This document shows, one piece after another, positions 320 to 42,958 of a stretch of 44,295 bases of DNA (position 1 is its first letter; each line of letters starts with the position of its first letter). The translations under genes and the position numbers were made by a program. The DNA is taken from IMG/VR virus record IMGVR_UViG_3300025837_000005, positions 1-44,295 of that record; one strand, given 5' to 3'. The notes beneath the pieces are model-generated. The model was not told the DNA's origin. It made no database searches and saw nothing but the letters and a program-made list of their open reading frames with translations. Origin of the DNA: a virus. Its lineage: Duplodnaviria > Caudoviricetes.

Positions 320-360
320 ATTAAGTGAAAAAACAGATACTAATAAAGGATTTATCACCC

Positions 361-482
361 ATCAATTACTAATCGGCTATAAGCCGATAGTTTGCAAGTA
401 AGTCGGCTGAAGCCGACTCCCTGCGATAGGTTTATTGACCAAAACCCTACCTGGATAGCATGTAGCGTCCAAGTAATTTTGC
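361..482 (-). ncRNA. TnpB omegaRNA scaffold overlapping the tnpB 3' end; predicted guide GGGTGATAAATCCTTTATTA (reverse complement of 341-360)
   Basis: Position at element right end; hairpins ATCGGCTATAAGCCGAT and AGTCGGCTGAAGCCGACT; same block recurs at 20887-21008. Confidence 0.75.
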
Positions 483-1531
483 CGGATATTCCGGCTTGCG
501 TTTAAATCAGCATTGAGAAAGAAACCACAATGTTTACATTTAAAGATAGTTTGAGATTGACGGTTGGAACGGGAGATGTAGCCGCAAGCGGAACATTTCT
601 GGCTGGTATAACGAGCATCAACATACTTGACCTTCATCCCTCTGGCCTCAGCTTTGTAAGCAAGGAATTGCTCAAATTGGAAGAAGTTCCATTTATGCAA
701 CTCTTTACGTTGCTTTTTACGAAGCCTTACAGTTTGCCTGATCCCAGACAAATTCTCAAGGGCAATTACCGTTCCGTTATCAAGAGATTCTACAATTTGC
801 TTTGTTATCGCGTGGTTAGTATCAGTTCTGAAGCGGTTCTCCTTCTTAGATATTTTTTGAAGGTGTCTTTTAGCCGATTTGCTGCCACAAGATTGCAAAA
901 CACTTCTAATCTTTTCGTAACGCCTGGAAACTCTTTTAATTTGACCGCCGCCAAAGAATTGATTTTCAGAGGTAACTGCAATCTTCTTAATCCCCCTGTC
1001 AACGCCGACAACATCGCCGGAGAGTTCCGAATCGGAAACCTCCTTACTGAAAACTATATTCAGAAAAACTTTATTCTTTCTGATAAACAGGTCAGCGGAA
1101 CATCGTTTCCATGTAAGATATTGTCGAAAACATTCAGGAACAGAGACAGGGATTTTGATTCTTCCTTCGATAGTAAGCAGAGAAAGCTCGTTTCGTTCAA
1201 ACCAAACATTGAAACTTCGAGCATCATAACGAACAGAACATTGCTTGCTTTGTGGGCAGGTCGCCTTTTGTTTCTTTTTCAATTTTGCTTTAACGGCCTT
1301 AATGGCTTCAGTAGCTTTCATTCGGGCAGATACAGCAAGCTGGGACGGAAGATATTCTCTTGTTTTAAGATAGGTTTTGTTGTGCAGAGAAACCCCATTA
1401 GAATCGCTGTCATTCCATCCTACTTGACAAACAAAATTAAAAGCCTTTGTGTAGGCGTCCAACGTTGGTTTGATGCTTTCTACCGGGATATTAAGTTTAA
1501 GCTTTATGGTTCTTACAAGCTTCATGTTCAT
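377..1531 (-). CDS. tnpB: RNA-guided endonuclease TnpB
   Basis: RuvC motifs VGVDRG, IALENL, NADLNA all intact; Zn finger CSAC...CKHC; YTSQKCS motif; 384 aa. Confidence 0.96.
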   Translation of the reverse strand: MNMKLVRTIKLKLNIPVESIKPTLDAYTKAFNFVCQVGWNDSDSNGVSLHNKTYLKTREYLPSQLAVSARMKATEAIKAVKAKLKKKQKATCPQSKQCSVRYDARSFNVWFERNELSLLTIEGRIKIPVSVPECFRQYLTWKRCSADLFIRKNKVFLNIVFSKEVSDSELSGDVVGVDRGIKKIAVTSENQFFGGGQIKRVSRRYEKIRSVLQSCGSKSAKRHLQKISKKENRFRTDTNHAITKQIVESLDNGTVIALENLSGIRQTVRLRKKQRKELHKWNFFQFEQFLAYKAEARGMKVKYVDARYTSQKCSACGYISRSNRQSQTIFKCKHCGFFLNADLNASRNIRQNYLDATCYPGRVLVNKPIAGSRLQPTYLQTIGL

Positions 1532-1560
1532 ATAATAAGCACATTAAATATATTTGTCAA
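1532..1560 (-). promoter_or_regulatory. sigma70-type promoter of tnpB, likely giving a leaderless mRNA
   Basis: TTGACA-17 nt-TATTAT on the minus strand, directly before ATG 1531 / ATG 1525. Confidence 0.7.
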
Positions 1561-1629
1561 GAGGAAAAGCGCTAAAGCGACTCGCCTGAAGGCGAGGGTT
1601 TCCGCTTCGCTCCTCCAGGAGACGAGACA

Positions 1630-1740
1630 ATGAGCGAAATAAAAATTATTGAACTGACAAGCCTGAAAACTGAAATATTATTACTTAAGGGTGAATTAAC
1701 AGAGAAGAAAAAGAAATTTACGAAATTATCAGGGAAATAA
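1630..1740 (+). CDS. Small hypothetical protein (36 aa, MSEIKIIELTSLKTE...)
   Basis: ATG at the element junction with AGGAG upstream; stop lies 3 nt before the next gene. Confidence 0.45.
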   Translation: MSEIKIIELTSLKTEILLLKGELTEKKKKFTKLSGK

Positions 1741-5969: not shown

Positions 5970-6297
5970 AGCAGGCGGCTTGTAACTGCACTCCGCCGCA
6001 ATTTCCCATAAGGGGTTTTGGCATCATCGTGCGTTACGATACGGCTATTGACTGAGCCGCTACCTGGATAGCATATAGCGTCCAAGTAATTTTGCCGGAT
6101 ATTCCGGCCAGCATTAAGATCAGCATTAAGAGAGAAACCGCAATGTTTGCACTTGAAGACAGATTGAGATTGACGATTGGAATGGGAAATGTATCCATAA
6201 TATGCACATTGAATGCTTTTATCAAGAAAAATCTTTTAAGAAAGGAGGACGGCATTTCTCTCCCAGCTAAAGCAGGGAGTTTCCTGCCGTGTGATTT
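5951..6297 (-). mobile_element. Internally deleted IS200/IS605 derivative (PATE/MITE-like) with omegaRNA, tnpB 3' remnant and promoter
   Basis: Right end ...GGTAGTTGAC; left-end hairpin CTCCCTGCTTTAGCTGGGAG; 6060-6195 similar to tnpB 3' end; TTGATA-17-TATTAT at 6225-6197; followed by ATGA. Confidence 0.88.
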
Positions 6298-10300: not shown

Positions 10301-13300
10301 GAACCCATTCGTGTCGACACAAAACAAGTGGTCCGGCCATCTTGATGGTTCTGACATACAGGGCCATGGCCTAGACGCCATTTTAAATAAAAATTCTGTA
10401 AAGTATGCATGGCTTCGGGATAATGGTATTGCTCCCAAAATAACCAAGAACACGGAATCGCCGTATAAATCATTGAGCCAGGCTTTCAGGTCTCATAAAA
10501 CAGAAAACGCCTTCCGTACTTTCGTAAGGGAAAAGTTTAAAACACTCGTTACCGGGCGCAAGATTTTAAAAGGAGTTACCTCTTTAGGCAACCGGAGGTA
10601 CATACCGTATACTCTTGATAATATTATAAAACAAATGCGGTCGGGCGCATTGCGTAGTGGAGAAGCTTCTTTTTACGGCGTCGGCAGCATCCGAGCGTCA
10701 CATGCAAAAGAATACAAAAGCCTCGGGAGCATCAAAAAAGACAAGGACCGGCTAGTTAACTCTGAACAAATGAACAAAATTAAAAATGACCTACAAAACC
10801 AACTGTCAGATCTTCTTGAATCGTTGAAACCGTTTTATAAATTTGAATCAACGTCGTTTGGTTATTATGATGACGCAGGTCGCGCATTAGCTGAAGGGCG
10901 CCATGGTATAAACGAAACCTTTAAAGAGTTGCCGAAAGAGGCGCTTGATAAGATTGACGCTTTTTTAAAATCTTTAAAAGAGGCGCCGACTGAATATTTT
11001 GAAGCGAAGGCTCAAAGGATTGTCGGTTTTAACGAATTTCACACGGCAGTTGTGCCAAAAAACACATCGCCGGACGTTGTTGCCGCACTAAAAAAACACG
11101 GTCTAGCCATCAACTATTACAAGAACGGCGACAATGCCGACAGGCAGCGAGCTATACGGAAAGCCGATAAGGTGTTGTTCCAGAAGACCACTTCTCTAGG
11201 CAGCGGCTTTCCCATTGCCGAAGTTAAGGCCATTGTTTTGCCACTTTTGAACAAGCTGACCGCTGGACCAAAGGCTCACTTCGTTCAGTCAGAAGCGGAG
11301 CTTCCCCCCAGGATTATAGACATCATCCAGCGAAAAAACGCATCCGGGCAGATTGTCGCCGTTAATGATCGTGGTGACATCTATTTCGTGGCAGACAATA
11401 TCCGTTCGACCGAAGATGCAGAGTCTGCATTCCTCCACGAGGTGTTCGGGCACTACGGTGTTGAGGCGATTCTCGGCAAGGAAAAAGCCAAGCGGTTTTT
11501 CACCAGCGTCTGGATGAGCAAGCTCAATGACCCGGAGTTCATGAAAATCGCCACTACCTACGATTCAGACCTGTCCACGGTTGCTGGCAAGGTGGAAGCG
11601 GCCCGCGAATATGTGGCAAAGCTGGCAGAATCCGGAGTAGACAACTCACTAATTACGAAATTGATCGGCATGATCCGGGGCGCCCTGCGGAAGTTGGGCG
11701 TGAAAATGAAGATCAGCAACAACGATATCCGCCAACTAATTGCCCTGGGCGCCCGGCAGATGAAGGGGGTGCGGTCTAAACTGCTCGTTGCCGAAAAAAC
11801 TGTTAATTTTCAGATTGCTGAAATGGTGAAGCATGTGCTCGGCATTAAGTTAGACCCGGCACAACCATCCGACGATGTTTTTTTTATGCGGACCCCCGCT
11901 CCTACTCCCGCCCCGATGATTGACAATTTCAAGGCGCTGAAGAAAGCGTTCGGCGAAACGACAGCCAGGGTGATTCGGGGTAAGATGCCGATTGCTTATG
12001 ATCACAGTGAAGAATTGATTGCTTTTCTTCAAAAGAAAGTGCCCGTCAAGTCGCATCTCCCCTACATCATCACAAATATGGGGATGGAGTTAGAGGTAGA
12101 GTTTTTATCCGAGAAGATGATCATTGTAGCGCCTGTCAAAGAAAAACTTACGCTGTCCGCTAAGGAGTTAGCCGAAAAAGCAGGATATAGGCTGACGGAG
12201 ACGAAAACTCGAAAAGATGTTCTTTCGTTTCGGTCAGATTACTCAAGAAACAGTGTAATATGTACGTACAATGACATAGAAGGCCGGTTGCGTGACCGTT
12301 TTATATTCTGGTTGCGCCGGTATAATGCTGATGTAACGCCGAGGGCCGAAGAGTTAACACAAGATAATCTTACCCCGGAATGGAAAAAATATCTGGAAAA
12401 AAGGGGTTGGTTAAAAGATGACGGGACGTATGCCCTGTCTGGGCTAAAGAGAGAACGGGAAGATCCTTATGGTACGTCGTCAATGTGTGTGCAAATCTGG
12501 CGTAAAAACGATAAATCAAAGGGGTCATTATGGATTCTCAACAGATATAATCATACCCTTCAGGACGGGAAAAATCCCGATGTTACATATAATAGAAAGC
12601 TAAACAAAATTATAGATGGTCTTGAGGACGCCATTTATGATTATGTAAAGATAAAAAAACCCGCAACGACCACGGACACGCCCGTCCTCTCCCCCGGCAT
12701 AGTCGAAGACGCGCAAGGGAGCCTATATCACTATGCCCGTGAGCGGAATGGCGTATATTGGGGCGACGGTTTTATTATGAGTGGTGGAGCGGCTACGATT
12801 GTCAACCCGGGCATTGAACGAGTGGTGGAGGGGTTTGTTCTGCGGGCTGACGGGATTGTAAATGGGGTTGGCTTATTCGCCAACTACGAGAACAGCATTT
12901 TTAGCCTTATCGGCAAGACCCGCTTTGGCAAAAAAGGGTTGATTGAGTGCACTACAAAAGACAACAAAAAGTTTTCTTTTTTTGTGCAAAATGGGCAGAT
13001 AATAAGATTCGATACCGGCGATCTTACTGAAATCAGCGGCTACTCCCTGTGCGACAACGCCGCCCTGACTTCAATTGCCCTGCCGAACGTGACTACCATT
13101 GGCGCCTTCTCCCTGAGTTACAACTCCGCCCTGACTTCAATTGCCTTACCGAACGTTGAAACCATTGGTAATAGCTCCCTGCGTGACAACGCCGCCCTGG
13201 CTTCAATTGAACTGCCGAACGTTAAAATCATTGACAACTACTCCCTGAGCGGCAATGCCGCCCTGACTTCAATTGAACTGCCGAACGTGACCGCCATTGG

Positions 13301-16300
13301 CAACTACTCCCTGCGTGACAACGCCGCCCTGGCTTCAATTGCCTTACCGAACGTTGAAACCATTGGTAACAACTCCCTGAGCAACAACCCCGCCCTGGCT
13401 TCAATTGAACTGCCGAACGTTAAAATCATTGACAACTACTCCCTGAGCGGCAACGCCGCCTTGGCTTCAATTGCCTTACCGAACGTGACCACCATTGGCA
13501 ACTACTCCCTGAGCAACAACGACTCTCTGACTTCAATTGCCTTACCGAATGTGACCACCATTGGCAACTACTCCCTGCGCGGCAATGCCGCCCTGACTTC
13601 AATTGCCTTACCGAACGTGATCACTATTGGCAACCACTCCCTGCGCAGCAATGCCGCCCTGACTTCAATTGCCTTACCGAACGTGATCACTATTGGCAAC
13701 CACTCCCTGTGCAACAATGCCGCCCTGGCTTTAATTGAACTGCCGAACGTGACCACCATTGGCGACCTCTCCCTGATCGACAATGCCGCCCTGGCTTCAA
13801 TTGCCTTACCGAACGTTGAAACCATTGGTAACGATTCCCTGAACAACAACCCCGCCCTGGCTTCAATTGAACTGCCGAACGTGACCACCATTGGCAACTA
13901 CTCCCTGAGCGACAACGCTGCCTTGGCTTCAATTGAACTGCCGAACGTTAAAATCATTAGCAGCTACTCCCTGTGCAACAATGCCGCCCTGGCTTCAATT
14001 GAACTGCCGAACGTTAAAATCATTAGCAGCTACTCCCTGTGCAACAATGCCGCCCTGACTTCAATTGCCTTACCGAACGTGATCACTATTGACAATTACT
14101 CCCTGCGCGACAACGCCGCCCTGGCTTCAATTGCCTTGCCGAATGTGACCACTATTAGCAACAGCTCCCTGAGCAGCAACCCCGCCCTGACTTCAATTAC
14201 CCTGCCGAACGTTGAAACCATTGGTAAAAACTCCCTGCGCAACAACGCCGCCCTGGCTTCAATTGCCTTGCCGAATGTGACCACCATTGGCAACTTCTCC
14301 CTGAGCGACAACGCTGCCCTGGCTTCAATTGAACTGCCGAACGTGACCACCATTAGCGACTACTCCCTGAGCAACAACGCTGCCCTGAAGAATATTATTT
14401 TACCTTTCGGGAAGAAAATTGTCCGCAACAACAAGACGTTTACGGGTGTGAGAGCCGAAGATCAGGATAAGCCGCTGTTTCAAACCGTAAAGGCAGGCGT
14501 CTCAAATTTTTCCGGCGTTACCACAAAACAGATACGGTCTTTTTTTAAAGGCCTTGATTCCGGCCGGTCGCCGGATGGTAAGGTCTGGGTTCGGATCGGC
14601 AAGCGAATCGTAATCGTGGAACAGGTGGAGGGGTTGATCAACAAGAGACAGTTTGTGGCCACCCTGTCCATCCGGGATCCCGGCAAAGCGTTCGGTGCAT
14701 ACAAGAACAAAACCATTTATTTATCTTCCCTGGGTGATAAATATACGCTGGCCCATGAGGGCATCCATCTTCTGGATGACATCGGTCTGATAAATAGGCT
14801 GGAGCAGACAGTTATTGAAAAGGCGGCCGGTGTTGAGCGTGGGGCCTCTGTCGGTGACCGAGCTGAAGCAAGGGCTGAATATCTTACCGCCTTATTGGAG
14901 GCCCGCGAGAAAACCCGCAATACGGTCCTGGGCCGAATCGTGCAAAAGGTGCGGGATTTTATTGACGGCCTGCGGGCGCTGTTTGGGGCGACGGTCGGGC
15001 AGGTGGCCAAGGGTATTGAGACCGGGCAGGCGTTCCAGAGAGAGGCCGGTAAGGGTGAGAGTGGGGCTGGCAAGATCATCCCCCTGCTCGAGCGGTTCAA
15101 CGACCAGAGCGATGATATCCGGTTCCAAACAGTAGGCCCTGCCGATGCCCTTGGCACAGCCGATACAATCGACAAAAAAGCCGCTGAGAAAACCAGAAAG
15201 GCCGTCGATGCAATTATAGCCGACATTAAAAAAACCACAAAGAAAAATACTATCACGGTCTCTGAGACAAAGGCCCGGAAGCTGGCCAGTGATTACGTTT
15301 TTCTTAAGACTATGATGAAAGACAACAGCGTTGACTTAGAGCAAAAAATAAAAGAATACAAGGCTTTCCTTATGAAGTTGCCCCCCGGCGTCAGAGCGAA
15401 AGCGCTGGCCGGTATGCCGAAAATAGTCACGGCAAAAACCAAAAAGACGCGGCAAAAATATTTTGACCAGGTTATCGTTCAAGCGCAAAAGTTTCTCTCC
15501 GAAGAGGTTAAAAAAGAACTCCGCCGAGACATCCATAAACTGCGTCGCAAACCGCGCACGGCCAAAGGCGGAAAGGTAAAAAAGAACGTCCTCTCCCAGC
15601 TTGAAAAACTAAACAAAACCGTTTTTGGTAAAACCCCGATAAATACAATGCCGGCGGCTGAGTTTCATATCAACGCCTTATCAAAACAGCGGGAGACGCT
15701 AGAGGAAAACGTTCCTGATTCGGACAACAAGATTGCTACAAACAAGTGGTTTTCAGATATCGAAGACATTGACCAGAAGATTGCTCTGATAAATACCTTC
15801 GGTGGCATAAAGGAAATGTCCGAAGCGCAGCTTGTCAATGCTTATGAAGAGTTACAGAGGATAATCGCTGAAGGCCGGACAAAATGGCAGGTAAGTGAGG
15901 CCATACGGAAACAAAAAATGGAGGAAATCCGGGGACGCCTTGACCGTGAGATTACTGGCGAAAAAGCCCCGAAGCCGGAAACCATTGGTCAAAGAAACCA
16001 GAGAATCCGTGACCAACAAAAAGCGTGGAACCGGATCGCCGACAAACTATCTCAATTCGATACCATACATCAAAGCTGGCGGTTCTTGATGGACAAACTG
16101 GCCAGAAAGTCCGGGAAGGGTACGCTGAAGTCCGACGCGGTTGAGATTATCGGTGGGGCAGCTCATTACGCAACAAACGAAGAAAACGCGCTCAACGGTG
16201 CGGCGATTGCTATGATAACGAAAAAAGTGAAGGATTTGATCGGCGGAACGGGGCACAAAGTCAAGAGATGGGTTGATAACCAATCAAATAAAGAGGATCT

Positions 16301-18053
16301 GTATATACTAACGTATGAAAATGGAAAGAACGAACAAATCAAATTGACCCCGATGACGGCGGCATATTGGTGGGCAGTAAAACAACGGGGCGACGCTCTC
16401 GCCGAAGATGGTATGGCAATGGTCAATACGACGTTCCAGAAAATGGGTGCAGACGCAGCTTTTTTCGGGCAGATTAAGAAAACGATTGATCCCGCGGTGA
16501 TTGAGTTATCCAGGTGGCTGTCAGAGACCCTGGGAGAGCACATCTACCAGACCGTTTCGCCTGTTTACAAACAGCGGTTTGGCGCCGTCCTTGATCACGG
16601 TCGAGCATATACCCCGATTCAGCGACAAATTTTTCGTAAAGAGAGGGATGTTAATTTGCTTCAGCAGTACCAGGAAACGCCGTCGATTATTAAAGGAGCA
16701 CTTCACACGCTGACGCACTCAACCAAGTCCATTCGGGAAACCAACCTGCTAAAAGTTTGGATGGATCATATATATGACATGAACCATTTCGCGGCTTGGT
16801 CGATTCCAATACAGATGATGCAGAGTGTTTTCGGCAACCCGATCACTAAGGGATATATTGAGCGGATTCACGGAACCAACATGAATTTCGCCATAGACGA
16901 GTTTATAAAGAAATTTACTGCCGGTCGCCGTAAGCTCAAGGATGTGTTTAATGTTTTAAATCTCGATTCCTGGCGGGGCCGGTTCAGCTCGGCCGTCATT
17001 GGCGCGAACCCTGTTATTTACATCAAACAGCTTACTTCCATCCCGGCAATGGCGGCGGATATCCCGACGAACGATTTTATCGCCGGGTTTGCCGACTTCC
17101 TGAATCCGACAACCGGCAGCCCTTTGGAAAAAATGCGGATTCTCGGAAAATCTCAGTTCGTTAAAATGAGATATGAAAAAGGCCATACCCGGGACGTGGC
17201 CATTGCCAGCAGGAAGACCCTTGGGCAGACAATCGGGCAGCAACACAACTGGCCAACGAAACTGATGTTTCTGGCACGCCTGGGCGACATGCAGGCCATT
17301 TATGCCGGAGGGTGGGCCGTCTATAAGTATCACCTTGAAGCCGGTCTTAAAAACGGCTTGGGTGAGCCTGAAGCGAAAAAACGGGCGATTATTAAATTTG
17401 AGGAGGTCGCAAGAGATACCCAACAGTCTGGAGAAATTATGGACCTGGGCCTTGTCCAACAGGGAGGCGACTTTTCAAAGCTGATGACCATGTTCTTCAC
17501 TGCCCCGGCCAGTTATTATCGGGAGATATCCGCCGCCATCAGAAATATGCCTGCCAACCCTGGTAATTCCGCAAAAAGATTGTTTCTCTTCTGGGTGATT
17601 GTCCCGGCAATGTTCGAGGCAATAGCCTCCCTTCCGCTGGTATTCGATGATGACGATGACGATTTTACTCTTTTCTGGAAACGAATGTTCCGATCTGTTG
17701 TTCTCGGGCCTACAAATGGGCTTTTTCTTGTCAGAGACATCGCAGAGACGCTGTATAACATTCTGTTTCTAAAGAACGATTCCGGATGGGGCGACGCTCA
17801 ATATTCTCCGGTCGGCAGCGTATCGGATACAACAAACAGGATTGCTAAGGATCTCCGGGAAATAGTCGAAGGCGACGACGATGATTTTGAGAAGCTGTTA
17901 AAAGACGCCGTCGATATCGCTGGTTATGTGTCGGGTTACCCGCTACCGGCCGCAAGCAACTTGATCGAAAACTGGGTGGATGTCGCTGCCGGGGACACGG
18001 AGCATCCTATGGCGCGGTCTATCGGTTATAGACAATGGGCTACCGGGGATTAG
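7314..18053 (+). CDS. Giant polyvalent (probably injected virion) protein with two zincin-like HExxH motifs and a BspA-type LRR array
   Basis: 3579 aa; HEVFGHYG and HEGIH motifs; about 21 x 22-aa LPNVTTIGNYSL repeats; last gene of the ejection-protein block. Confidence 0.8.
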   Translation: MALLKYIREKNGGLPNIDSFALAKAVYDANPKYQTMSFDNFASAAGIEEDIAATRSGLKDTAAAVIESVPVAGMGLLSSAVGAIKGVSKNAGVYAEDLTMAERLQSKSDKMTAEYLQKHGINTGDKFLGLTPAGVAQAMSNMGYTGLGMVSGGAGGAAGLAATGGNPVGGYVGAGVASAGVLTSAAKNQIMRAYRDALNEKREEAGEPILSDKEWFETAAAFNKEANKHALWESGLETAGELLEFGAITAPLKKIVGKEIAERMAKNWIGKTANVGVRSAAASGSELATEAVTLLKQAPIEKKAGLREDVPENFLEAVKEVYPVVMPMAIIAGGGAKLGHVAYKKASERIKEAKEKRANTAVEQAKKLAESLIGKEPSDTGLRDRDLAIIAEEILNDIETGLYDNPAVANDLAGEVERTPGLLDAIEKAKNVRVGVIPTPATPSPSLSETNLGPDFKNAPVNRSALDAEDSEKNRIRQVYALKQQIAAVKQQAPGETQTPFRARVIKKLEADLEALGPVNLSAEAAKRNQVVLSGMKPEIAGFNVPKTKEDVLAEQALAGAEETAWADEQKTIQKQRNDQQVISLRKRLADLKKQKQTKPVKKQIKETEDRLGSLKPADIIRQKARENQARIDAGLFPEEFPEPRTFENAPVNRLAGKAKTLADMSASLQTTETRGVATDKEGNRYSFGASSPRWFTKLNEKTKSVGQEFFSRKEIDVLARKYVSRAKLTAKQRQRMFLLDQAVTDFENETGKEKKGTVTPSPETPQTISSEPLAAPQSDVTNTLTPTDNKLLPVAEAKSVPAEVLKDYPDLAAKTKPAAWESSELVQSPNIQIDRTEAKKQADGSFRLFFRGTRNEVFAGQTFGSASEARQFFKVQQAKAQQDAASSRKEPDDSPKFSLTEDKSLYITHNITEDKLRHALDLGGLAMPSSAVSSIKNEAMVKFGDISLLAHPNFLQSGKVRVFDADIYSPRYPAAKYDINEKAITDFNKWIDGDWNPFVSTQNKWSGHLDGSDIQGHGLDAILNKNSVKYAWLRDNGIAPKITKNTESPYKSLSQAFRSHKTENAFRTFVREKFKTLVTGRKILKGVTSLGNRRYIPYTLDNIIKQMRSGALRSGEASFYGVGSIRASHAKEYKSLGSIKKDKDRLVNSEQMNKIKNDLQNQLSDLLESLKPFYKFESTSFGYYDDAGRALAEGRHGINETFKELPKEALDKIDAFLKSLKEAPTEYFEAKAQRIVGFNEFHTAVVPKNTSPDVVAALKKHGLAINYYKNGDNADRQRAIRKADKVLFQKTTSLGSGFPIAEVKAIVLPLLNKLTAGPKAHFVQSEAELPPRIIDIIQRKNASGQIVAVNDRGDIYFVADNIRSTEDAESAFLHEVFGHYGVEAILGKEKAKRFFTSVWMSKLNDPEFMKIATTYDSDLSTVAGKVEAAREYVAKLAESGVDNSLITKLIGMIRGALRKLGVKMKISNNDIRQLIALGARQMKGVRSKLLVAEKTVNFQIAEMVKHVLGIKLDPAQPSDDVFFMRTPAPTPAPMIDNFKALKKAFGETTARVIRGKMPIAYDHSEELIAFLQKKVPVKSHLPYIITNMGMELEVEFLSEKMIIVAPVKEKLTLSAKELAEKAGYRLTETKTRKDVLSFRSDYSRNSVICTYNDIEGRLRDRFIFWLRRYNADVTPRAEELTQDNLTPEWKKYLEKRGWLKDDGTYALSGLKREREDPYGTSSMCVQIWRKNDKSKGSLWILNRYNHTLQDGKNPDVTYNRKLNKIIDGLEDAIYDYVKIKKPATTTDTPVLSPGIVEDAQGSLYHYARERNGVYWGDGFIMSGGAATIVNPGIERVVEGFVLRADGIVNGVGLFANYENSIFSLIGKTRFGKKGLIECTTKDNKKFSFFVQNGQIIRFDTGDLTEISGYSLCDNAALTSIALPNVTTIGAFSLSYNSALTSIALPNVETIGNSSLRDNAALASIELPNVKIIDNYSLSGNAALTSIELPNVTAIGNYSLRDNAALASIALPNVETIGNNSLSNNPALASIELPNVKIIDNYSLSGNAALASIALPNVTTIGNYSLSNNDSLTSIALPNVTTIGNYSLRGNAALTSIALPNVITIGNHSLRSNAALTSIALPNVITIGNHSLCNNAALALIELPNVTTIGDLSLIDNAALASIALPNVETIGNDSLNNNPALASIELPNVTTIGNYSLSDNAALASIELPNVKIISSYSLCNNAALASIELPNVKIISSYSLCNNAALTSIALPNVITIDNYSLRDNAALASIALPNVTTISNSSLSSNPALTSITLPNVETIGKNSLRNNAALASIALPNVTTIGNFSLSDNAALASIELPNVTTISDYSLSNNAALKNIILPFGKKIVRNNKTFTGVRAEDQDKPLFQTVKAGVSNFSGVTTKQIRSFFKGLDSGRSPDGKVWVRIGKRIVIVEQVEGLINKRQFVATLSIRDPGKAFGAYKNKTIYLSSLGDKYTLAHEGIHLLDDIGLINRLEQTVIEKAAGVERGASVGDRAEARAEYLTALLEAREKTRNTVLGRIVQKVRDFIDGLRALFGATVGQVAKGIETGQAFQREAGKGESGAGKIIPLLERFNDQSDDIRFQTVGPADALGTADTIDKKAAEKTRKAVDAIIADIKKTTKKNTITVSETKARKLASDYVFLKTMMKDNSVDLEQKIKEYKAFLMKLPPGVRAKALAGMPKIVTAKTKKTRQKYFDQVIVQAQKFLSEEVKKELRRDIHKLRRKPRTAKGGKVKKNVLSQLEKLNKTVFGKTPINTMPAAEFHINALSKQRETLEENVPDSDNKIATNKWFSDIEDIDQKIALINTFGGIKEMSEAQLVNAYEELQRIIAEGRTKWQVSEAIRKQKMEEIRGRLDREITGEKAPKPETIGQRNQRIRDQQKAWNRIADKLSQFDTIHQSWRFLMDKLARKSGKGTLKSDAVEIIGGAAHYATNEENALNGAAIAMITKKVKDLIGGTGHKVKRWVDNQSNKEDLYILTYENGKNEQIKLTPMTAAYWWAVKQRGDALAEDGMAMVNTTFQKMGADAAFFGQIKKTIDPAVIELSRWLSETLGEHIYQTVSPVYKQRFGAVLDHGRAYTPIQRQIFRKERDVNLLQQYQETPSIIKGALHTLTHSTKSIRETNLLKVWMDHIYDMNHFAAWSIPIQMMQSVFGNPITKGYIERIHGTNMNFAIDEFIKKFTAGRRKLKDVFNVLNLDSWRGRFSSAVIGANPVIYIKQLTSIPAMAADIPTNDFIAGFADFLNPTTGSPLEKMRILGKSQFVKMRYEKGHTRDVAIASRKTLGQTIGQQHNWPTKLMFLARLGDMQAIYAGGWAVYKYHLEAGLKNGLGEPEAKKRAIIKFEEVARDTQQSGEIMDLGLVQQGGDFSKLMTMFFTAPASYYREISAAIRNMPANPGNSAKRLFLFWVIVPAMFEAIASLPLVFDDDDDDFTLFWKRMFRSVVLGPTNGLFLVRDIAETLYNILFLKNDSGWGDAQYSPVGSVSDTTNRIAKDLREIVEGDDDDFEKLLKDAVDIAGYVSGYPLPAASNLIENWVDVAAGDTEHPMARSIGYRQWATGD
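13020..14400 (+). repeat. About 21 tandem 66-nt repeats encoding BspA-like leucine-rich repeats
   Basis: Unit GCCCTG(A/G)CTTCAATTG..(C/T)T.CCGAACGT......ATTNNCNNCNNCTCCCTGNNCNNCAAC. Confidence 0.92.
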
Positions 18054-19182: not shown

Positions 19183-20706
19183 TCATGATTGTCTCGTCTC
19201 TTGAATTTTTTTAATGGCAATTGACTTCGGCACGCTCCAAAACGGCTCATTTTTTGTCTCGGGATTAGATTGAGCTTCATATTCACTTACAAGCTTTACC
19301 CATTTCTCGATCTGGTTTTTTGCCGGTGGCCTGTGCCCGCTGACAGTTTTTTCGAGCCTTAGCTTTTCGCTCGCATATGCTTTAGCCTCTCTTGTCGCCG
19401 TCACGACCAGTCTGTCGTATGAGTTCTTCAGATCGGTTTCATGCTTGGGATCGTCGGTTTCAGGTTTGGGATAGCCGATTTTAGGCTTGGGATCGTCGGT
19501 TTCAGGCTTGGGATCGGGCTGGCCGAAAGGAAACGGTCCCTTATCGATGTCAAGCAGGCTTGTAGCTGAGGCAGCGACATCCCGCAAAAGTTGGTGTGCA
19601 TCTCGTAGCGCCAGACTCGTGATGTTAATTTTTCTTTTTTCACACTCATTTTTGATAATCGCGGCCTTGTCCACACTATAGCGATGTTGCAGATCTTCAT
19701 TGTACGGGTTCCACTCTTCCTTTTGGGGAATTTTTTTTCCTGCGTTTGTCCCGATCTCTAAACCGTCGCTTGTTTGTGCGCCGGGCGCAGGGCTGTCTGC
19801 GCTAGATTTGGGCTTAAGTTCAGGCTCTGCGCTAGGTTCGGGCTTAAGTTCAAGCTCTGCGCTAGGTTTGGGCTTAAGTTCAGGCTCGGTCTTTTTTTTC
19901 AGCGCGCTCCTGAGAGCATCAATGCCGGATATAGACTCGCCCGGTTTGGCACGGACGATTTCGAACCAGTCGCTCAGGACACTCATATTATCCTGCAGCG
20001 AAGTATAAATTTTTCGCAAACTGACGATCTGGGATAGGGTAATTGTATCAATGCGGCGCTGAATGCGCCTTTCAATCATTTCCTTCTTAACGCCAAGAGC
20101 GTTAAATGCGTCGATCATTTTTTTGATAGCCACAGGGGACACATCGGTGCTGGCCTTCAGAGTCTCCTCACATTGACTAACGGCGACATCGATCACATCG
20201 CCCGGTATGATGCCTAGAATACACGCCCGCAGACGCCGGCTGCCCTGATTAGCCGTTGCCTCGTAGATGTCGCGGCCGTCTTCCAGCGCGTAATTTCCTC
20301 GCTTCGTGTACCGAACATGCTTGACTACAAAAATTTTAACCTGGCGCACATTGGTTTCTAAATCCCAAGCATATGCCATCATTTCGGATTCGCCTTGGTT
20401 TTGCGCGATTTCTTTGATGCCATAGTCTATGTTTCCCCAATTCCGGGCCATAACTTCGGCCAGCCGAATTGAAGGACCGGAGATATCTGTACCGCCACGG
20501 TTATAAGAGTAAAGCGCTTTTTCGGCCAGCCCTGGCCGCTGGCATTCCCTTAAGATGCGATCAACGCACAGTTGCGGCATTCGGCCGAATCGTTTTGCCA
20601 AAATGATACCCGCCTGGACTTCGGCCACTGCCCGGGAGGTTTCAATACTAATTGCGTTGTTTTCTTGACTTTGGCCATTCCCGTAGGGATTCATAATTTT
20701 GTTCAT
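19183..20706 (-). CDS. Putative single-strand annealing/recombination protein with Pro/Lys/Glu repeat tail
   Basis: GPSIRLAE...WGN...AWDLETN motifs; lies between yqaJ and ssb; GAGGAG RBS. Confidence 0.6.
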   Translation of the reverse strand: MNKIMNPYGNGQSQENNAISIETSRAVAEVQAGIILAKRFGRMPQLCVDRILRECQRPGLAEKALYSYNRGGTDISGPSIRLAEVMARNWGNIDYGIKEIAQNQGESEMMAYAWDLETNVRQVKIFVVKHVRYTKRGNYALEDGRDIYEATANQGSRRLRACILGIIPGDVIDVAVSQCEETLKASTDVSPVAIKKMIDAFNALGVKKEMIERRIQRRIDTITLSQIVSLRKIYTSLQDNMSVLSDWFEIVRAKPGESISGIDALRSALKKKTEPELKPKPSAELELKPEPSAEPELKPKSSADSPAPGAQTSDGLEIGTNAGKKIPQKEEWNPYNEDLQHRYSVDKAAIIKNECEKRKINITSLALRDAHQLLRDVAASATSLLDIDKGPFPFGQPDPKPETDDPKPKIGYPKPETDDPKHETDLKNSYDRLVVTATREAKAYASEKLRLEKTVSGHRPPAKNQIEKWVKLVSEYEAQSNPETKNEPFWSVPKSIAIKKIQETRQS

Positions 20707-20763
20707 TTTGAACTCCTCACTTAGTTGTTTTGATTAAAAATCTTCTATAACTTGGTTTGTCTA

Positions 20764-20844
20764 CCAAAATTTTATGCACGTCTCCCAAAATTTTATGCAC
20801 GTCTCCCAAAATTTTATGCACGTCTCCCAAAATTTTATGCACGT
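20764..20844 (+). repeat. About 4 tandem copies of 21-nt CCAAAATTTTATGCACGTCTC
   Basis: Direct reading; unit derives from yqaJ sequence near 21476-21497. Confidence 0.9.
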
Positions 20845-20886
20845 TTTCAAACTTAAGAGATTTAGCCCGTCTCTGCGAACCGATAT

Positions 20887-21008
20887 GTCAATTACTAATC
20901 GGCTATAAGCCGATAGCTTGCAAGTAAGTCGGCTGAAGCCGACTCCCTGCGATAGGTTTATTGACTAAAACCCTACCTGGATAGCATGTAGCGTCCAAGT
21001 AATTTTGC
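20887..21008 (-). ncRNA. Orphan TnpB omegaRNA scaffold; predicted guide ATATCGGTTCGCAGAGACGG
   Basis: 122-nt block differing from 361-482 at about 3 positions, ending in ...TAATTGAC. Confidence 0.8.
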
Positions 21009-21034
21009 TATACAGAGCAGTAATATCCGCCACA

Positions 21035-21973
21035 TTAACCGCTGCAGGCGCGTGGCGTTTTTGCACTGACTCCCAAAATTTTATGCACATCTCCAGACTT
21101 AGTTGCTTTGATTAAAAGCCTTCTAGAGCCTGGTTTATTTACTAAGTATTGCCGGAATAACTCCGGTTGCTCTGTCTGGAATCGCTTCTCGTCTAATCTA
21201 GTAGAATCCTTGCTTTTTTTCCAAGTACACAGTGGAGCGCCGTCCAATCCAATGAGCGTATCCGCTTCGCCCAGAGCTTGTAAAATTTGGAACTTAAATG
21301 CTTCTTGCTCTACCTCGAGAGATTTAGCCCGTCTCTGCGAATCGATATATGCCCGGACTGCCGCCTCAACCTCGGCTGATGCCAAGACCTGCGCGGCCAT
21401 GGACTTTCTGCCATACAGAGCAGTAATATCCGCCACATTAACTGCTGCAGGCGCGTAACGTTTTTGCACTAATTCCCAAAATTTTATACACGTCTCCAAC
21501 AACATTTTCTGGATTTCTACGTCCTCTCTAATTGTATAAATTTCCGGCACGGTGCCGTGAAATGAAACAGGAAGATCGGTGATGGTCCGACCGGCCATCA
21601 TCATATAAAATTGTACCTGAGTCTGATAATAAACCGGGATCTGATCGGTGCCGGGGTTCCCCCAGTCAACGGATGACCGTGCCGTCTTGATCTCAATTAC
21701 TCTGTCCGGGGTCAGACCATCCAGGTGGGCGATCAGGTAGGGATATCGGGGGTGCTGTAATGGGCCGGGCACAGCGACTGTCTGACCCGTATATTGCTCA
21801 TACCATTGCAGTATAACAGGTTCAACCATGCGCCCGTAAGCCATGGCTGGATTATCGGGCGAGCCAGCCGATTCACCGATTTTTTCTAAATAAATTTGCA
21901 GCGGTGTTTTCCACGGCGACACGCCACAAATAGCGGCTACGTCTGAACCGCCGATTCCTTTTGTTCTATCCAT
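21035..21973 (-). CDS. YqaJ-like viral recombinase (lambda exonuclease family)
   Basis: GIGGSDVAAI, AHLDG, IEIKT, YQTQVQFY motifs; C-terminus extended about 20 aa by the duplication. Confidence 0.92.
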   Translation of the reverse strand: MDRTKGIGGSDVAAICGVSPWKTPLQIYLEKIGESAGSPDNPAMAYGRMVEPVILQWYEQYTGQTVAVPGPLQHPRYPYLIAHLDGLTPDRVIEIKTARSSVDWGNPGTDQIPVYYQTQVQFYMMMAGRTITDLPVSFHGTVPEIYTIREDVEIQKMLLETCIKFWELVQKRYAPAAVNVADITALYGRKSMAAQVLASAEVEAAVRAYIDSQRRAKSLEVEQEAFKFQILQALGEADTLIGLDGAPLCTWKKSKDSTRLDEKRFQTEQPELFRQYLVNKPGSRRLLIKATKSGDVHKILGVSAKTPRACSG

Positions 21974-22078: not shown

Positions 22079-22783
22079 TTATTTGCCAGATACCATCTCT
22101 CTAAATTTGGCAGCTTGAGCGGCCTGTATGGTTTTCCGTGCGGCATCTTCTGCGACCCATGTGGCGGCCTTTGTGTCTCTTGTGGTTTTCCGTGCAGCCC
22201 ATGCGGCGACCCATGTGGCGATTCCTGTGGCGATCCCTACGACGTTCTTTGCGACATTCTTTGCGACGACCCCTGCGGCCACTAGGGCGGCCCTTTCGGC
22301 CAGTGTGGCGGCCTTTTCGGCCAGTGCGGCTTCCCGTGCGATATCTCCTGCGATGCATGCGTCCTCTGTGGCGACCCCTGTGGCAATCCCTGCGACGGCC
22401 CTTGCGGCGGCCCCTGCGGCGGCCCTTGCGGCACCCCATGCGTCCTCTGCGGCGTCCTTTGCGGCGGATAGTTCTTTATCGGTGGCCTGTCCGTTAGCGT
22501 ATCTCTCAGCTACACCGAGAGCATTTAAACTTCGTTGATCTGTCATCAGGTATTGCCCTTGCCGTGCGCACCACACAGCATACAGTCGCCATACCCGATT
22601 ATACTCTGGTGCAGCATAGCAGCACCAGAGAGCATCCTCCAAGCCATTGCTGTCGAGGATGACGCTAAAAGGCAACGATTCATCATCTAACATGGTTTTG
22701 CCAAGATATTTTAATAGTTTTTTCCATCCTCTGGAACCTATATTGCACATTTGAATTTTGTTTAGCGTTGTTGTCAATTGCAT
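22079..22783 (-). CDS. Ala-rich phage protein, tandem paralogue 3
   Basis: MQLTTTLNKI...ILDSNGLEDALWC...AERYANGQAT; variable Ala-rich tail. Confidence 0.85.
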   Translation of the reverse strand: MQLTTTLNKIQMCNIGSRGWKKLLKYLGKTMLDDESLPFSVILDSNGLEDALWCCYAAPEYNRVWRLYAVWCARQGQYLMTDQRSLNALGVAERYANGQATDKELSAAKDAAEDAWGAARAAAGAAARAVAGIATGVATEDACIAGDIAREAALAEKAATLAERAALVAAGVVAKNVAKNVVGIATGIATWVAAWAARKTTRDTKAATWVAEDAARKTIQAAQAAKFREMVSGK

Positions 22784-22849
22784 TTCTCTCTCCTTTTTGT
22801 TTTCCCGGATGCGCCGGGTCGGTTGCTTTTTCCTGCGGCATAAATCATA

Positions 22850-23485
22850 TTATCTGCCAGATACCATCTCTCTAAATTTGGCAGCTTGAGCGGCCTGTGT
22901 GCTTTCCCGTGCGGCATCTTCTGCGACCCATGTGGTGGCCTCTGTGTCTCTTGCGGTTTTCCATGCGGCCCATGCAGCGATCCTTGCAACGGCCTGTGCG
23001 ACGGCCCTTGCAGCGTTCTTTGCGGCCAGTACGGCGGCCAGTGCGACTTCCCGTGCGGCATCTTCTGCAACCCATGCGGTATCTTCTGCGACCCGTGCGT
23101 CCTTTGCGGCGGCCCATGCGGCGTCCCTTGTGACGGCCCATGCGTCCTTTGCGGCGGTCCATGCGGCGGATAGCTCTTTATCGGTGGCCTGTCCGTTAGC
23201 ATACCTCTCGGCCACATCGAGAGCATTCAAACTTCGTTGATCTGTCATCAAGTACTGTACTTGCCGTGCGCACCACACAGCATACAGTTGCCATACCCGA
23301 TTATGCTCTGGCATAGTATGACAGCACCAGAGAGCATCCTCCAAACCATTGCTGTCGAGGATGACGCTAAAAGGCAACAATTCATTATCTGCCACGGTTT
23401 TGCCAAGATGTTTCAACAGTTTTCTCCAACCTTTAGAGCATGGACTGCACATTTGGATTCTATTCAGCGTTGTTGTCAATTGCAT
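22850..23485 (-). CDS. Ala-rich phage protein, tandem paralogue 2
   Basis: Same motifs as its neighbours; 211 aa. Confidence 0.85.
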   Translation of the reverse strand: MQLTTTLNRIQMCSPCSKGWRKLLKHLGKTVADNELLPFSVILDSNGLEDALWCCHTMPEHNRVWQLYAVWCARQVQYLMTDQRSLNALDVAERYANGQATDKELSAAWTAAKDAWAVTRDAAWAAAKDARVAEDTAWVAEDAAREVALAAVLAAKNAARAVAQAVARIAAWAAWKTARDTEATTWVAEDAARESTQAAQAAKFREMVSGR

Positions 23486-23551
23486 TTCTCTCTCCCTTTT
23501 GTTTTCCCGGATGCGCCGGGTCGGTTGCTTTCTTCCACGGCATAAATCATA

Positions 23552-24187
23552 TTATTTGCCAGAGACCATCTCTCTAAATTTGGCAGCTTGAGCGGCCTGT
23601 ACGGTTTTCCGTGCGGCATCTTCTGCGACCCATGTGGCGGCCTTTGTGTCTCTTGTGGTTTTCCGTGCAGCCCATGCGGCGATCTCTGCGACGGCCTGTG
23701 CGACGACCCCTGCGGTGTCCCCTGCGATGACCCTTGCGACGACCCCTGCGGCGTTCCTTACGGCCAGTGCGGCTTTCCGTGCGGTATCTTCTGCAATCCA
23801 TGCGTCCTTTGTGACGGCCCATGCGTCCTTTGCGGCGGCCCATGCGTCCTTTGCGGCGGCCCATGCGGCGGATAGCTCTTTATCAGTGGCCTGTCCGTTA
23901 GCATACCTCTCGGCCACATCGAGAGCATCCAAGCTTCGTTGATCTATCATCAGGTACTGCACTTGCCGTGCACACCATATAGTATACAGTCGCCATACCC
24001 GATTATGCTCTGGTGCAGTATGACAGCACCAGAGAGCATCATCCAAGCCATTGCTGTCGAGGATAACGCTAAAAGGCAACGATTCATCGTCTGCCACGGT
24101 TTTGCCAAGATATTTCAACAGTTTTCTCCATCCTTTAGAGCATGGATTGCACATTTGAATTTTATTCAGCGTTGTTGTTAATTGCAT
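23552..24187 (-). CDS. Ala-rich phage protein, tandem paralogue 1
   Basis: Same motifs as its neighbours; 211 aa. Confidence 0.85.
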   Translation of the reverse strand: MQLTTTLNKIQMCNPCSKGWRKLLKYLGKTVADDESLPFSVILDSNGLDDALWCCHTAPEHNRVWRLYTIWCARQVQYLMIDQRSLDALDVAERYANGQATDKELSAAWAAAKDAWAAAKDAWAVTKDAWIAEDTARKAALAVRNAAGVVARVIAGDTAGVVAQAVAEIAAWAARKTTRDTKAATWVAEDAARKTVQAAQAAKFREMVSGK

Positions 24188-25600: not shown

Positions 25601-25835
25601 AAAACCCGACATTTTCGCTTGACAACGCCGCCGGTTGATGACATGGTGGCGATAACCTGGAAATACGGCATGCCCAGGAAACCAACTGGAGACAGAAAAT
25701 ATCCCTCACGAAAATTTCACATGCGCACCCCGAGTCAGGACTCGGGCCTGACGGCAACGATGCTCTCTCCCTGACAATTCTGTTATAGAGTCCTCCATTA
25801 CATCGTTGTCTGCCGAGCGAGGTGCGCATTTTTTT
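25600..25835 (+). ncRNA. Promoter plus structured RNA candidate, copy 1
   Basis: TTGACA; closing helix TGCGCACC/GGTGCGCA followed by a T-run; hairpin CCCGAGTCAGGACTCGGG; helix GGCAACGATG/CATCGTTGTC. Confidence 0.55.
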
Positions 25836-25954
25836 GAGCGGAACTATGCAATTTAAAATTCGCCCATCAGATCGTGTGATCCCATCCTCTCCTTTTGTTG
25901 ATTTCATTATAACACGGTTTTGATGGACGATTTTTCTTTGGAGGCTCCATGAAA

Positions 25955-26192
25955 AATAAAGCCCAATATTTTCGCTTGACAACGCCGCCAGTCGATGACA
26001 TGGTGACGATAACCTGGAACTACGACATGCCCAGGAAAACACGCAGGGGAGAAAAATATCCCTCACAAAACTTTACGTGCGCACCCCGAGTCAGGACTCG
26101 GGCCTGACGGCAACGATGCTCTCTCCCTGGCAGCCCTGCCATAGAGTTTCCCCTGCACATCGTTGTCTGTCAAGTGGGGTGCGCATTTTTTA
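25955..26192 (+). ncRNA. Promoter plus structured RNA candidate, copy 2
   Basis: Near-duplicate of copy 1 with pairing-preserving changes; immediately upstream of the primase. Confidence 0.55.
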
Positions 26193-26209
26193 AAGGGGAA
26201 AATTGTTTT

Positions 26210-28750: not shown

Positions 28751-29776
28751 ATGGCTAAATTAAAAGCACCGTTCCCATATTTTGGAGGAAAATTAAGAAT
28801 GGCCTCTCTAATTTGGAAAGCACTTGGGAATCCAAAACATTACATCGAGCCTTTTTTCGGGTCTGGCGCTGTGCTTCTTGCGCGGGAAAGATTTAATCCG
28901 GCAGAAACAATAGAGACGATATGTGATAAAGATGGATTTTTGGCGAACGTTTGGCGGTCTTTACAGCAATGTCCGGATGAAGTCGCGAAATGGTGCGACT
29001 GGCCCGTGAATCATGTCGATTTGAACGCTCGGCGGCGGCGGTTGCTTGCCGAAGAACCAGCCCTTTTAAAAAATCTTGCAGAAAATGACGAATATTGTAA
29101 TCCGAAGCTGGCTGGATATTGGGTTTGGGCGGCGTCCTGCTGGATCGGTTCGGGCTTGACGCGTTTAAACGCGATACCCTCTATCAGCGACAGCGGGATG
29201 GGGGTGCACGCCATTGGGCAGATCCCCCACATCAGCAGCAGCGGGATGGGGGTGCACGCCATTGGGCATATCCCCCACATCAGCGACAGCGGGATGGGGG
29301 TACACGACCCGTACAATACCAATATTTATAAATTATTCAGGCAATTATCAGAGCGGTTACGGTATGCCCGGGTAGTGTGCGGCGACTGGACTCGTGTTTG
29401 TGGTGGCAAATGGCAAGACAAAGCTGGTGATGTCGGTATTTTTTTTGATCCGCCATACGGGGTTAAGGATAGGGATTTGTTTTTATATCGTCACGATTCA
29501 TCAACCATCGCTGCCGATGTTATGGCCTGGTGTAAGGAGCGCGGTAACATTCCATCATATCGCATTGTCCTGGCAGGCTATGAAGAATATCAAGAGTTGA
29601 TTGAAAATTACGGTTGGAAGGCTCAAGTATGGCAATCAAATGGCGGATATGCCAACACGAGCACCAATAAAACCCGTGGAGACGATAATAAAAAGCGGGA
29701 ATGTCTGTATTTTTCACCGTATTGTATGAAGCAATTACAACAGGGGGAGCTTTTTAAGTCAACTACCGCCAGCTAA
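28751..29776 (+). CDS. DNA adenine methyltransferase (Dam/D12-like)
   Basis: PYFGGK, EPFFGSGAV, DPPY; three internal 15-aa repeats. Confidence 0.88.
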   Translation: MAKLKAPFPYFGGKLRMASLIWKALGNPKHYIEPFFGSGAVLLARERFNPAETIETICDKDGFLANVWRSLQQCPDEVAKWCDWPVNHVDLNARRRRLLAEEPALLKNLAENDEYCNPKLAGYWVWAASCWIGSGLTRLNAIPSISDSGMGVHAIGQIPHISSSGMGVHAIGHIPHISDSGMGVHDPYNTNIYKLFRQLSERLRYARVVCGDWTRVCGGKWQDKAGDVGIFFDPPYGVKDRDLFLYRHDSSTIAADVMAWCKERGNIPSYRIVLAGYEEYQELIENYGWKAQVWQSNGGYANTSTNKTRGDDNKKRECLYFSPYCMKQLQQGELFKSTTAS

Positions 29777-30001
29777 AGCAGGCGGCTTGTAACTGCACTC
29801 CGCCGCAATTCCTCATAAGGGGCTTTGGCATCATCGTGCGCTACGATACGGCTATTGACTGAGCCGCTACCTGGATAGCATATAGCGTCCAAGTATTTAT
29901 ATAATATGCACATTAAATGCTTTTGTCAAGAAAAATCTTTTAAAAAAGAAGGACGGCATTCCTCTCCCAGCTAAAGCAGGGAGTTTCCTGCCGTGTGATT
30001 T
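29758..30001 (-). mobile_element. Minimal IS200/IS605 derivative: left end, promoter and omegaRNA only
   Basis: Near-identical to both ends of 5951-6297; TTGACA-17-TATTAT (29929-29901) abuts the scaffold; followed by ATGA. Confidence 0.88.
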
Positions 30002-30107: not shown

Positions 30108-30209
30108 ATGACACTTCATGACACTTGAAGGGCATTTTCATATTAGCCCCAGAAAAAAGCCCTAAGGGCATTTTAATGAAAATGCCCTTCAAGTGTCATG
30201 AAGTGTCAT
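30108..30209. repeat. Perfect 34-bp inverted repeat followed by an AT-rich tract; candidate replication origin
   Basis: ATGACACTTCATGACACTTGAAGGGCATTTTCAT (30108-30141) and its reverse complement (30176-30209). Confidence 0.8.
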
Positions 30210-42769: not shown

Positions 42770-42958
42770 GTGGCCTACTTTTCTGCTAAGCCTCCGGTGC
42801 CGGACGCCAAAAAAATGCACGACCCGGAATTCACCAAACAGGATATTAAAAAGGGTTTTTCGGTTTCCCCTATGTATGGGAAAACCGGTGAGCCTTCCAA
42901 TATACTAACTGTTCGAAACCGAGAGTGGCGCAAGGAAGTGGAGAATGCTTTCGGGTAA
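42770..42958 (+). CDS. Small hypothetical protein
   Basis: AGGAGG RBS, GTG start; current stop supplied by the inserted element. Confidence 0.65.
   Translation: MAYFSAKPPVPDAKKMHDPEFTKQDIKKGFSVSPMYGKTGEPSNILTVRNREWRKEVENAFG

Follow-up and report, generated by a model that had tools for sequence, protein, structure and literature searches.

A probable transposon insertion scar in a phage yqaJ gene and the possible by-product activity of its orphan omegaRNA against sister alleles

Standalone omegaRNAs that act in trans have been described, and in the available portion of that report their role is stated as unknown (PMC10691335). PATE-like, protein-less derivatives of IS200/IS605 elements often encode omegaRNAs, according to the accessible text of another study (PMC10055086). 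During TnpB-dependent homing of IS605 elements, an empty allele that carries both the motif and the guide match is cut and inheritance is biased among co-resident replicons (PMC10055086 and PMC11870625, in the sections available), and a TnpB gene drive among plasmids has been reported in the available part of the latter study (PMC11870625). In phage T4, SegF and SegG are responsible for intronless homing and marker exclusion, in which self and non-self are distinguished by substitutions in a nearby conserved gene (available passages of PMC2988022 and PMC13565253); interference competition by an intron endonuclease is a comparable relative-cutting system (PMC11620839, available part). TldR repressors represent another related system, in which a TnpB-family protein and its guide are found on a phage and the target lies in a bacterial or phage gene region (PMC10705468 and PMC13622181, as far as their accessible text goes). 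No description of an orphan omegaRNA within the duplicate of a phage gene whose self allele lacks the motif was found in the literature searched, in which subscription journals and supplements had limited coverage.

Such an omegaRNA is present in the window, by which we mean the whole stretch of 44,295 nt that was analysed. This linear virus record has a completeness of 83% (CheckV) and contains genes for terminase, an SU10-type portal, primase-helicase, ssb and yqaJ. The features of the locus are as follows.

19183..20706, minus strand: next gene of the leftward cluster (phrog_3657)
20717..20767, minus strand: 3' end of the yqaJ remnant with stop codon; the ribosome-binding site of the next gene follows
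20759..20855, minus strand: a stretch that resembles a junction, and four 21-bp units in tandem whose source is yqaJ coding sequence
20856..20886, minus strand: guide position, the yqaJ sequence that flanked the insertion site; its first ~16 nt would serve as guide
20887..21008, minus strand: orphan omegaRNA scaffold, the last 122 nt of a tnpB-only IS605 element
21010..21097, minus strand: yqaJ remnant upstream of the scaffold (second allele)
21035..21973, minus strand: intact yqaJ, 312 aa, a RecE-like recombination exonuclease (PF09588, E 8e-28; phrog_434, E 2e-75)
21318..21352, minus strand: self site in intact yqaJ, GCAT (21352-21349) followed by the guide match with a mismatch at position 7

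Like standalone omegaRNAs and PATEs, the orphan is a right-end omegaRNA with no effector in cis and a compatible TnpB elsewhere in the genome, and its guide is the flank of an insertion site; the known ones are described as trans-acting in the text available (PMC10691335, PMC10055086). Unlike them, it has no left end, and hence is immobile, and no promoter was seen for it. Its surroundings are a dead, incomplete second copy of a phage gene, and the intact copy of its target, which lacks the motif, is 430 bp away. With left end and motif absent and a yqaJ remnant abutting the scaffold, it is not a PATE or another mobile derivative. In contrast to the TnpB gene drive, self and non-self would differ here by substitutions in an intact gene rather than by whether the element is present. 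The predicted activity would moreover take place on a phage replicon, with 20 kb between the nuclease gene and the guide. The comparison with T4 intronless homing is that a phage nuclease would cut a relative's allele of a conserved gene, its own being protected by sequence differences; as in marker exclusion, the self allele (GCAT) differs at the recognition site from all six sister alleles listed (TCAT). Unlike for the T4 homing endonucleases, recognition is predicted to be RNA-guided and to stem from an insertion scar. Membership of the TldR group was considered and rejected, since the window's TnpB keeps its catalytic triad (D178/E259/D342) and is enclosed by both transposon ends; unlike the TldR targets, the site here is mid-gene and has a changed motif.

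The complete element, which is the likely partner in trans of the orphan scaffold, and the other members of its family are listed below.

361..1629, minus strand: full tnpB-only IS605 element with left-end hairpin, sigma70-like promoter, tnpB and overlapping omegaRNA
377-1531, minus strand: tnpB, 384 aa (PF01385, OrfB_IS605, E 7.7e-11; PF07282, TNB domain, E 1.4e-23)
5951-6297, minus strand: relic that keeps a piece of tnpB
29758-30001, minus strand: relic, a minimal cassette of left end, promoter, omegaRNA and right end
42955-43079, minus strand: relic with the last hairpin only, ending in TTTAC
3695-3790 of contig L005: relic in the sister phage

TnpB contains two CxxC motifs that form a zinc finger, its best matches among solved structures are Cas12f/TnpB proteins, and its gene is preceded by a promoter match (TTGACA-17-TATTAT). 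A tnpB-only IS200/IS605 element of this kind belongs to the IS1341 group. The three relics of the window are protein-less derivatives of a related tnpB element that keep both ends, with TCAT outside each left end, and their guides have no self match with fewer than three mismatches in 16 nt; the full element has TCAT at 1633-1630, so that the motif precedes all four window elements that keep a left end. Relatives from six genome contigs and 20 viral loci were used to define the element ends. Of the 14 relatives whose left end is visible, 11 have TCAT at a distance of 15-30 nt ahead of the left hairpin (the exceptions being L023, L025 and L041), and the right end is TTGAC in 17 of 18 aligned copies and TTGAT in one. 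A fixed left motif of 4-5 nt, a fixed right end, hairpins at both ends and variable flanks are the features of the tnpB-only class, and from this pattern TCAT is read as the insertion motif of the family. It has been established for the family that TnpB and the transposase share one motif (PMC10278001, available text); by analogy, TCAT may also be the motif of the window's TnpB. Neither a tnpA (PF01797, Y1; PF00239, serine) nor an integrase or resolvase was found in the window's record (83% complete), and PF01797 was absent from all four related records searched, which are fragments. A search for the empty site of the tnpB-bearing copy gave 12 matches, none of which continues like its flank.

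Several minor observations concern the ends of these elements. At 1520-1570 (minus strand), a first ATG immediately follows the -10 match of tnpB and a second lies 6 nt further; the second would fit a leaderless mRNA, and the arrangement recurs in relatives. Contig L008 (60-1692) resembles the window (1-1633) with 94% amino acid identity in tnpB, and in both the omegaRNA end and the right flank are the same, down to the rare TTGAT; it differs in the left-end hairpin and in the neighbour beyond it, a sequence pattern that suggests recombination or gene conversion inside the element. The TCAT of the minus strand forms the ATGA start of the next plus-strand gene at 1630-1633, 6298-6301 and L005 3780-3800, and thus these elements land on start codons; the left end places GGAG/GAGG just ahead of the start codon at these sites. 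The insertion in yqaJ is the sole mid-gene insertion seen here.

The orphan scaffold begins shortly ahead of stem 1 and finishes with TTGAC, and left end, motif and tnpB are missing. The first-pass annotation had described it as a near-exact copy of the cognate scaffold in sense orientation, and both points hold: 119 of 121 nt are shared between 20888-21008 and the right end of the tnpB element (362-482), making the scaffolds 98% identical, and the orphan is on the minus strand, like yqaJ, the gene after yqaJ and ssb. Calling this cluster an early operon, as was done there, would fit its gene content and one sigma70-like site. Positions 20887 and 361 also differ, giving TTGAC in the orphan and TTGAT in the tnpB-bearing copy. 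As the orphan holds the family's common base at all three differences, it is undecayed and probably derives from a sibling of the tnpB-bearing copy.

Comparative analysis of 18 homologues supported the structure of this RNA. The 26 named pairs are paired in 97.2% of cells, with 48 two-sided changes in the alignment (13.4 in shuffles, at most 8 when the pairs are slid) and a covariation of 0.342 (0.144 in shuffles, at most 0.087 when slid), which is strongest in stem 2. The GUCAA/UUGAC pseudoknot is nearly invariant among these homologues and therefore carries no covariation. TnpB omegaRNAs are structured over some 110-130 nt, have a pseudoknot that involves their 3' end and, in full elements, overlap the 3' part of tnpB; the folding z of the orphan is -4.9, and 38 of 39 scaffold pairs keep p>0.5 within a 421-nt context. 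No family was matched at the locus in an Rfam scan. In the available text on ISDra2 TnpB, a 116-nt scaffold is sufficient (PMC10097598), and AmaTnpB trims RNA 5' of its own omegaRNA to 126 nt and tolerates extra 3' sequence (accessible part of PMC10278001).

No promoter was seen for the orphan scaffold itself, and its expression would rely on read-through, which counts against activity. The only candidate source is a sigma70-like consensus match on the minus strand (24281-24253), 3.2 kb upstream, which could drive transcription into the scaffold; one weak terminator-like hairpin lies between the two, and the scan found no more of these than expected by chance.

What surrounds the scaffold is another, incomplete copy of yqaJ, with 21010-21097 on one side and the 21-bp repeats and 20720-20767 on the other, a feature missing from the coordinates of the first-pass annotation. 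The last ~20 codons of the intact gene read into this remnant; the homologous end is at 21098, and the sister protein has 295 aa. In the sister phage (contig L005), a single intact yqaJ, 90.3% identical at the nucleotide level to the intact copy of the window, runs straight into the next gene, with no remnant and with TCAT directly before the guide-matching stretch. This next gene corresponds to 19183-20706 and occupies what is presumably the typical position of a recombinase partner; a contig of run X7 also joins 21098 straight to 20706. Upstream of the scaffold, 85 nt of the remnant were compared, showing seven differences from 21413-21497, six from L005 and no private base. The joint between remnant and scaffold shows GCA(A/G)AA microhomology. 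The scaffold stands in place of 64 nt of yqaJ that end exactly at the motif, and the motif itself is gone together with the left end and tnpB.

On the other side, the guide stretch matches intact yqaJ (21318-21348) at 30 of 31 positions, with its mismatch at guide position 7, exactly as first described, and GCAT was likewise seen ahead of the site on the minus strand. The expected chance count of such a match is ~2e-12. The stretch matches L005 at 26 of 31 positions (mismatches at 10, 14, 16, 19 and 23) and has no base private to the remnant. The segment at 20759-20855 stands in for ~170 nt of the remnant, and the core of its 21-bp unit occurs in five copies in the carriers and once in L005. 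These repeats were considered as CRISPR-like repeats or iterons and rejected, as spacers are absent and the unit is a piece of yqaJ coding sequence that is single in the sister. The 3' end of the remnant (48 nt compared) has nine differences from 21098-21145, eight from L005 and five private bases. Taken together, the TCAT site of L005, the family motif and the yqaJ sequence on both flanks support well the earlier proposal that an insertion destroyed one yqaJ allele. An intermediate with the full element in yqaJ was not found; all four junction matches belong to carriers.

Tandem duplication is habitual in the region of yqaJ. Three tandem Ala-rich paralogues (phrog_18326) with repeated 5' regions lie at 22079-24187 (minus strand). 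Five starts are present in this array in contig L002 and a rearranged order in L007, from which it follows that the copy number varies or assembles unstably. Upstream of the primase-helicase there is a 243-nt direct duplicate (25601-25843 and 25958-26200, 84%), each copy of which begins with a TTGACA hexamer.

To see how the guide relates to other phages, five further sister alleles were read from per-position depths among the contigs listed, and the mismatches per allele are at least those given.

Run X24, record 21: sister yqaJ allele with TCAT; listed mismatches at 10, 14 and 16
Run X24, record 22: sister yqaJ allele with TCAT; listed mismatch at 7
Run X7, record 28: sister yqaJ allele with TCAT; listed mismatches at 7, 10 and 16
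Run X2, record 13: sister yqaJ allele with TCAT; listed mismatches at 10 and 14
Run X2, record 14: sister yqaJ allele with TCAT; listed mismatch at 10

Among the alleles listed, TCAT is thus present in all six sisters, L005 included, and the carrier alone of the seven has GCAT. One mismatch falls within guide positions 1-12 in five of the six as listed, and none of the six matches the 16-nt guide perfectly. A pattern scan of metagenomes for TCAT followed by a perfect 16-nt target gave three contigs (two carriers and the sister), and a viral scan gave 25 stretches, of which four are from carriers, one is from the sister and the other 20 are short, unrelated matches whose agreement ends no later than position 14-15; such a target appeared in neither scan. 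The TCAT-bearing alleles that the first-pass annotation advised looking for in related phages are real as far as the motif goes, and the perfect guide match did not appear among the six listed.

The self site was proposed earlier to be an escape allele. This holds for the motif (TCAT in all six sisters, GCAT in the carrier) and fails for position 7, where the base of the carrier occurs together with TCAT in two of the six sisters and is therefore standing variation. Moreover, GCAT lies inside a block of three changes within 8 nt (the two others at 21354 and 21359), a pattern that resembles a block of allelic variation more than escape by a point change.

In our view, it is somewhat probable that the locus is the scar of an old insertion whose RNA would likely load on TnpB and cut the TCAT alleles of sisters in preference to self, as a by-product of the usual homing chemistry of transposons. 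The completeness of the scaffold, TCAT in the six listed sisters and the intact TnpB triad support a scar with retained activity. The mismatch rules are borrowed from other TnpBs, and the motif and the mismatch tolerance of the window's TnpB are assumed to be comparable. In the available text on ISDra2 TnpB, about 12 bp of motif-proximal pairing are needed and double mismatches there abolish cleavage (PMC10097598); for a Sulfolobus TnpB, targets with a single mismatch are cut at a strong motif and not at a weak one (PMC11043419, accessible part). By the latter rule, sisters would be substrates and the self site of the carrier would not. Biased cutting of sisters is thus plausible from the sequences, five of the six listed alleles having TCAT and one mismatch in the first 12 nt.

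The history might be reconstructed in five steps. Insertion at TCAT, for which motif and empty site are seen, would have turned the downstream yqaJ sequence into a guide. An intact yqaJ may then have been placed upstream by partial tandem duplication or by recombination with a relative, though these events could have occurred in another order. A deletion, probably at the microhomology, would have taken the motif, the left end and tnpB and left the structured scaffold entire. With an active guide, no allele but a motif-less one could coexist, and GCAT would represent a filtered pre-existing variant or a chance one rather than a demonstrated point escape. During mixed infection, cutting and repair would favour the yqaJ region of the carrier, as predicted from other TnpBs. 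We infer read-through transcription, processing and loading in trans, cutting of sisters and filtering of GCAT alike.

Any preference of the guide for the yqaJ of sisters would probably be a by-product of an old insertion rather than an evolved weapon, because the locus occurs in one strain only, three more relics are present in the window and one in the sister, and tandem duplications lie nearby. Depth over stems 1-2 of the scaffold (20951-20991) is ~10- to 40-fold above that of the flanking phage DNA in runs X1, X2, X7 and X24, and several foreign flanks are seen beside these stems in the same runs. The element family is therefore abundant in the community, and TnpBs from other sources could read the orphan guide.

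An inert scar with the same history is unlikely in our estimate. According to this explanation, either the RNA is not made, processed or loaded usefully or none of the living sister alleles is cut; GCAT would reflect the usual variation among alleles, and the match would be without consequence. The missing promoter of the orphan and the want of a perfectly matched allele among the six listed sisters are consistent with it, as is the general divergence of the gene: of 860 positions compared between the carrier and L005 yqaJ, 286 show a difference within a 4-nt stretch and 670 within a 16-nt stretch. Besides the target site, yqaJ and the initial 800 nt of the gene that follows contain 16 TCAT sites, three of which have also changed. 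Relics of the family are common here, and two of them, 42955-43079 and L005 3695-3790, are too short for function. However, the orphan scaffold is complete, in sense and folds in its context, TnpB is intact behind a good promoter match, and the carrier has the sole allele of seven without TCAT, which is the direction required for self-tolerance.

A second alternative, which we consider improbable, is that the guide has been kept since it wins mixed infections, TnpB cutting the yqaJ of a sister and blocking or converting that phage, as an RNA-guided form of intronless homing or marker exclusion. Such domestication would agree with a deletion that stops 6-7 nt before stem 1 and leaves just the conserved part, the scaffold, undecayed, with a motif missing in self and present in all six listed sisters, and with the carrier contig L003 and the sister contig L005 sharing an IMG data-set number. 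The exact guide haplotype is absent among the listed sisters, and the target site is locally divergent, with six amino acid changes in codons 207-215. Few stretches of the gene diverge as much (5 differences in 20 nt, a level found in 45 of 857 windows; P 0.04 gene-wide). This divergence is suggestive and not significant, since P is 0.12 against the C-terminal rate, and it extends beyond the first 12 nt; it could reflect past selection, which favours domestication, or sisters that are already immune, which favours an inert scar. The breakpoint is not special either: those of the relics scatter at the 5' side, and 29758-30001 ends at nearly the same point as the orphan.

Two further observations weigh against domestication. 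A self match with at most one mismatch in 16 nt was found for one of the 22 distinct right-end guides examined, that of the orphan, most of the loci being short. Scans of the collections placed the locus in one near-clonal strain, so that no conservation is demonstrable and selection on the guide cannot be shown.

Whether scar or module, the case bears on the role of standalone omegaRNAs, given as unknown in the available text (PMC10691335). It is doubtful that a transposition accident has become RNA-guided marker exclusion, in which an immobile, promoter-less omegaRNA programs a distant TnpB against the yqaJ of sisters. If so, the carrier would be immune through its motif-less working copy, and the phage would gain a programmable anti-sibling guide without acquiring a CRISPR spacer. 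The locus represents a complete natural test set, comprising an intact TnpB, an orphan guide, a motif-less self site and six listed TCAT sister alleles from the same kind of sample as the carrier. Asymmetric cutting would mean that insertion scars can give phages anti-sibling guides. This would parallel intronless homing, with an RNA as the guide, and could plausibly be how selfish homing begins to turn into competition between phages. If cutting is not asymmetric, the locus would show a functionless origin of self-matching orphan guides, a caution for genome mining.

It is very improbable that TnpB and the guide bind the GCAT site without cutting and damp yqaJ and the following genes in the manner of TldR. 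The self site has three of four motif bases and 15 of 16 guide matches, and in the available text the motif matters more than seed pairing for off-target binding by a Geobacillus TnpB (PMC10055086). On the other hand, the changed base sits in the very motif on which such binding depends, the site is mid-gene rather than in a promoter, and the RuvC triad is intact, unlike that of the nuclease-dead TldR described in the accessible part of PMC13622181. The regulation by weak self-binding once suggested for the locus thus found no support in a TnpB that keeps its catalytic residues.

We give hardly any credence to an assembly chimera, in which two yqaJ alleles from the same sample would have been joined with a transposon end present in many copies. 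Short-read data, the high scaffold depth, several alleles per run and a joint at 21009 absent among the bridging pieces shown might suggest one. Against it, 20707-21500 is identical in five other contigs, two of the three joints are bridged without a difference, and the remnant shows alleles of its own as well as private bases in its 3' part. In detail, 20707-21500 is letter-identical across all six carrier loci tested, representing five distinct contigs (L017 and L002 counted once). The guide-scaffold joint is spanned by Logan contigs from runs X1 and X2, and the joint between yqaJ and the remnant by those from X1, X2 and X7, each with no differing letter; no listed piece covers the entire stretch. 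The misassembly that the first-pass annotation had considered was therefore not borne out. The carrier records may come from a single sampling campaign, and their identity shows reproducible assembly rather than a widespread locus.

Some other features of the window were also observed. Just after a methyltransferase gene and the relic at 29758 there is an inverted repeat (30108-30209) whose 34-nt arms match perfectly and which encloses part of a third copy; it is a possible origin or operator. A 3579-aa protein (7314-18053, plus strand) contains a PBECR5 nuclease domain and a long block of BspA-type leucine-rich repeats in 66-nt units, presumably resembling a phage polyvalent protein. Finally, a group I intron (40782-41022, plus strand; Rfam RF00028, 70.8 bits), which contains no endonuclease ORF, appears to split the major head gene into a short exon from ~40724 and the remainder in the ORF at 41084-41977 (phrog_1357).
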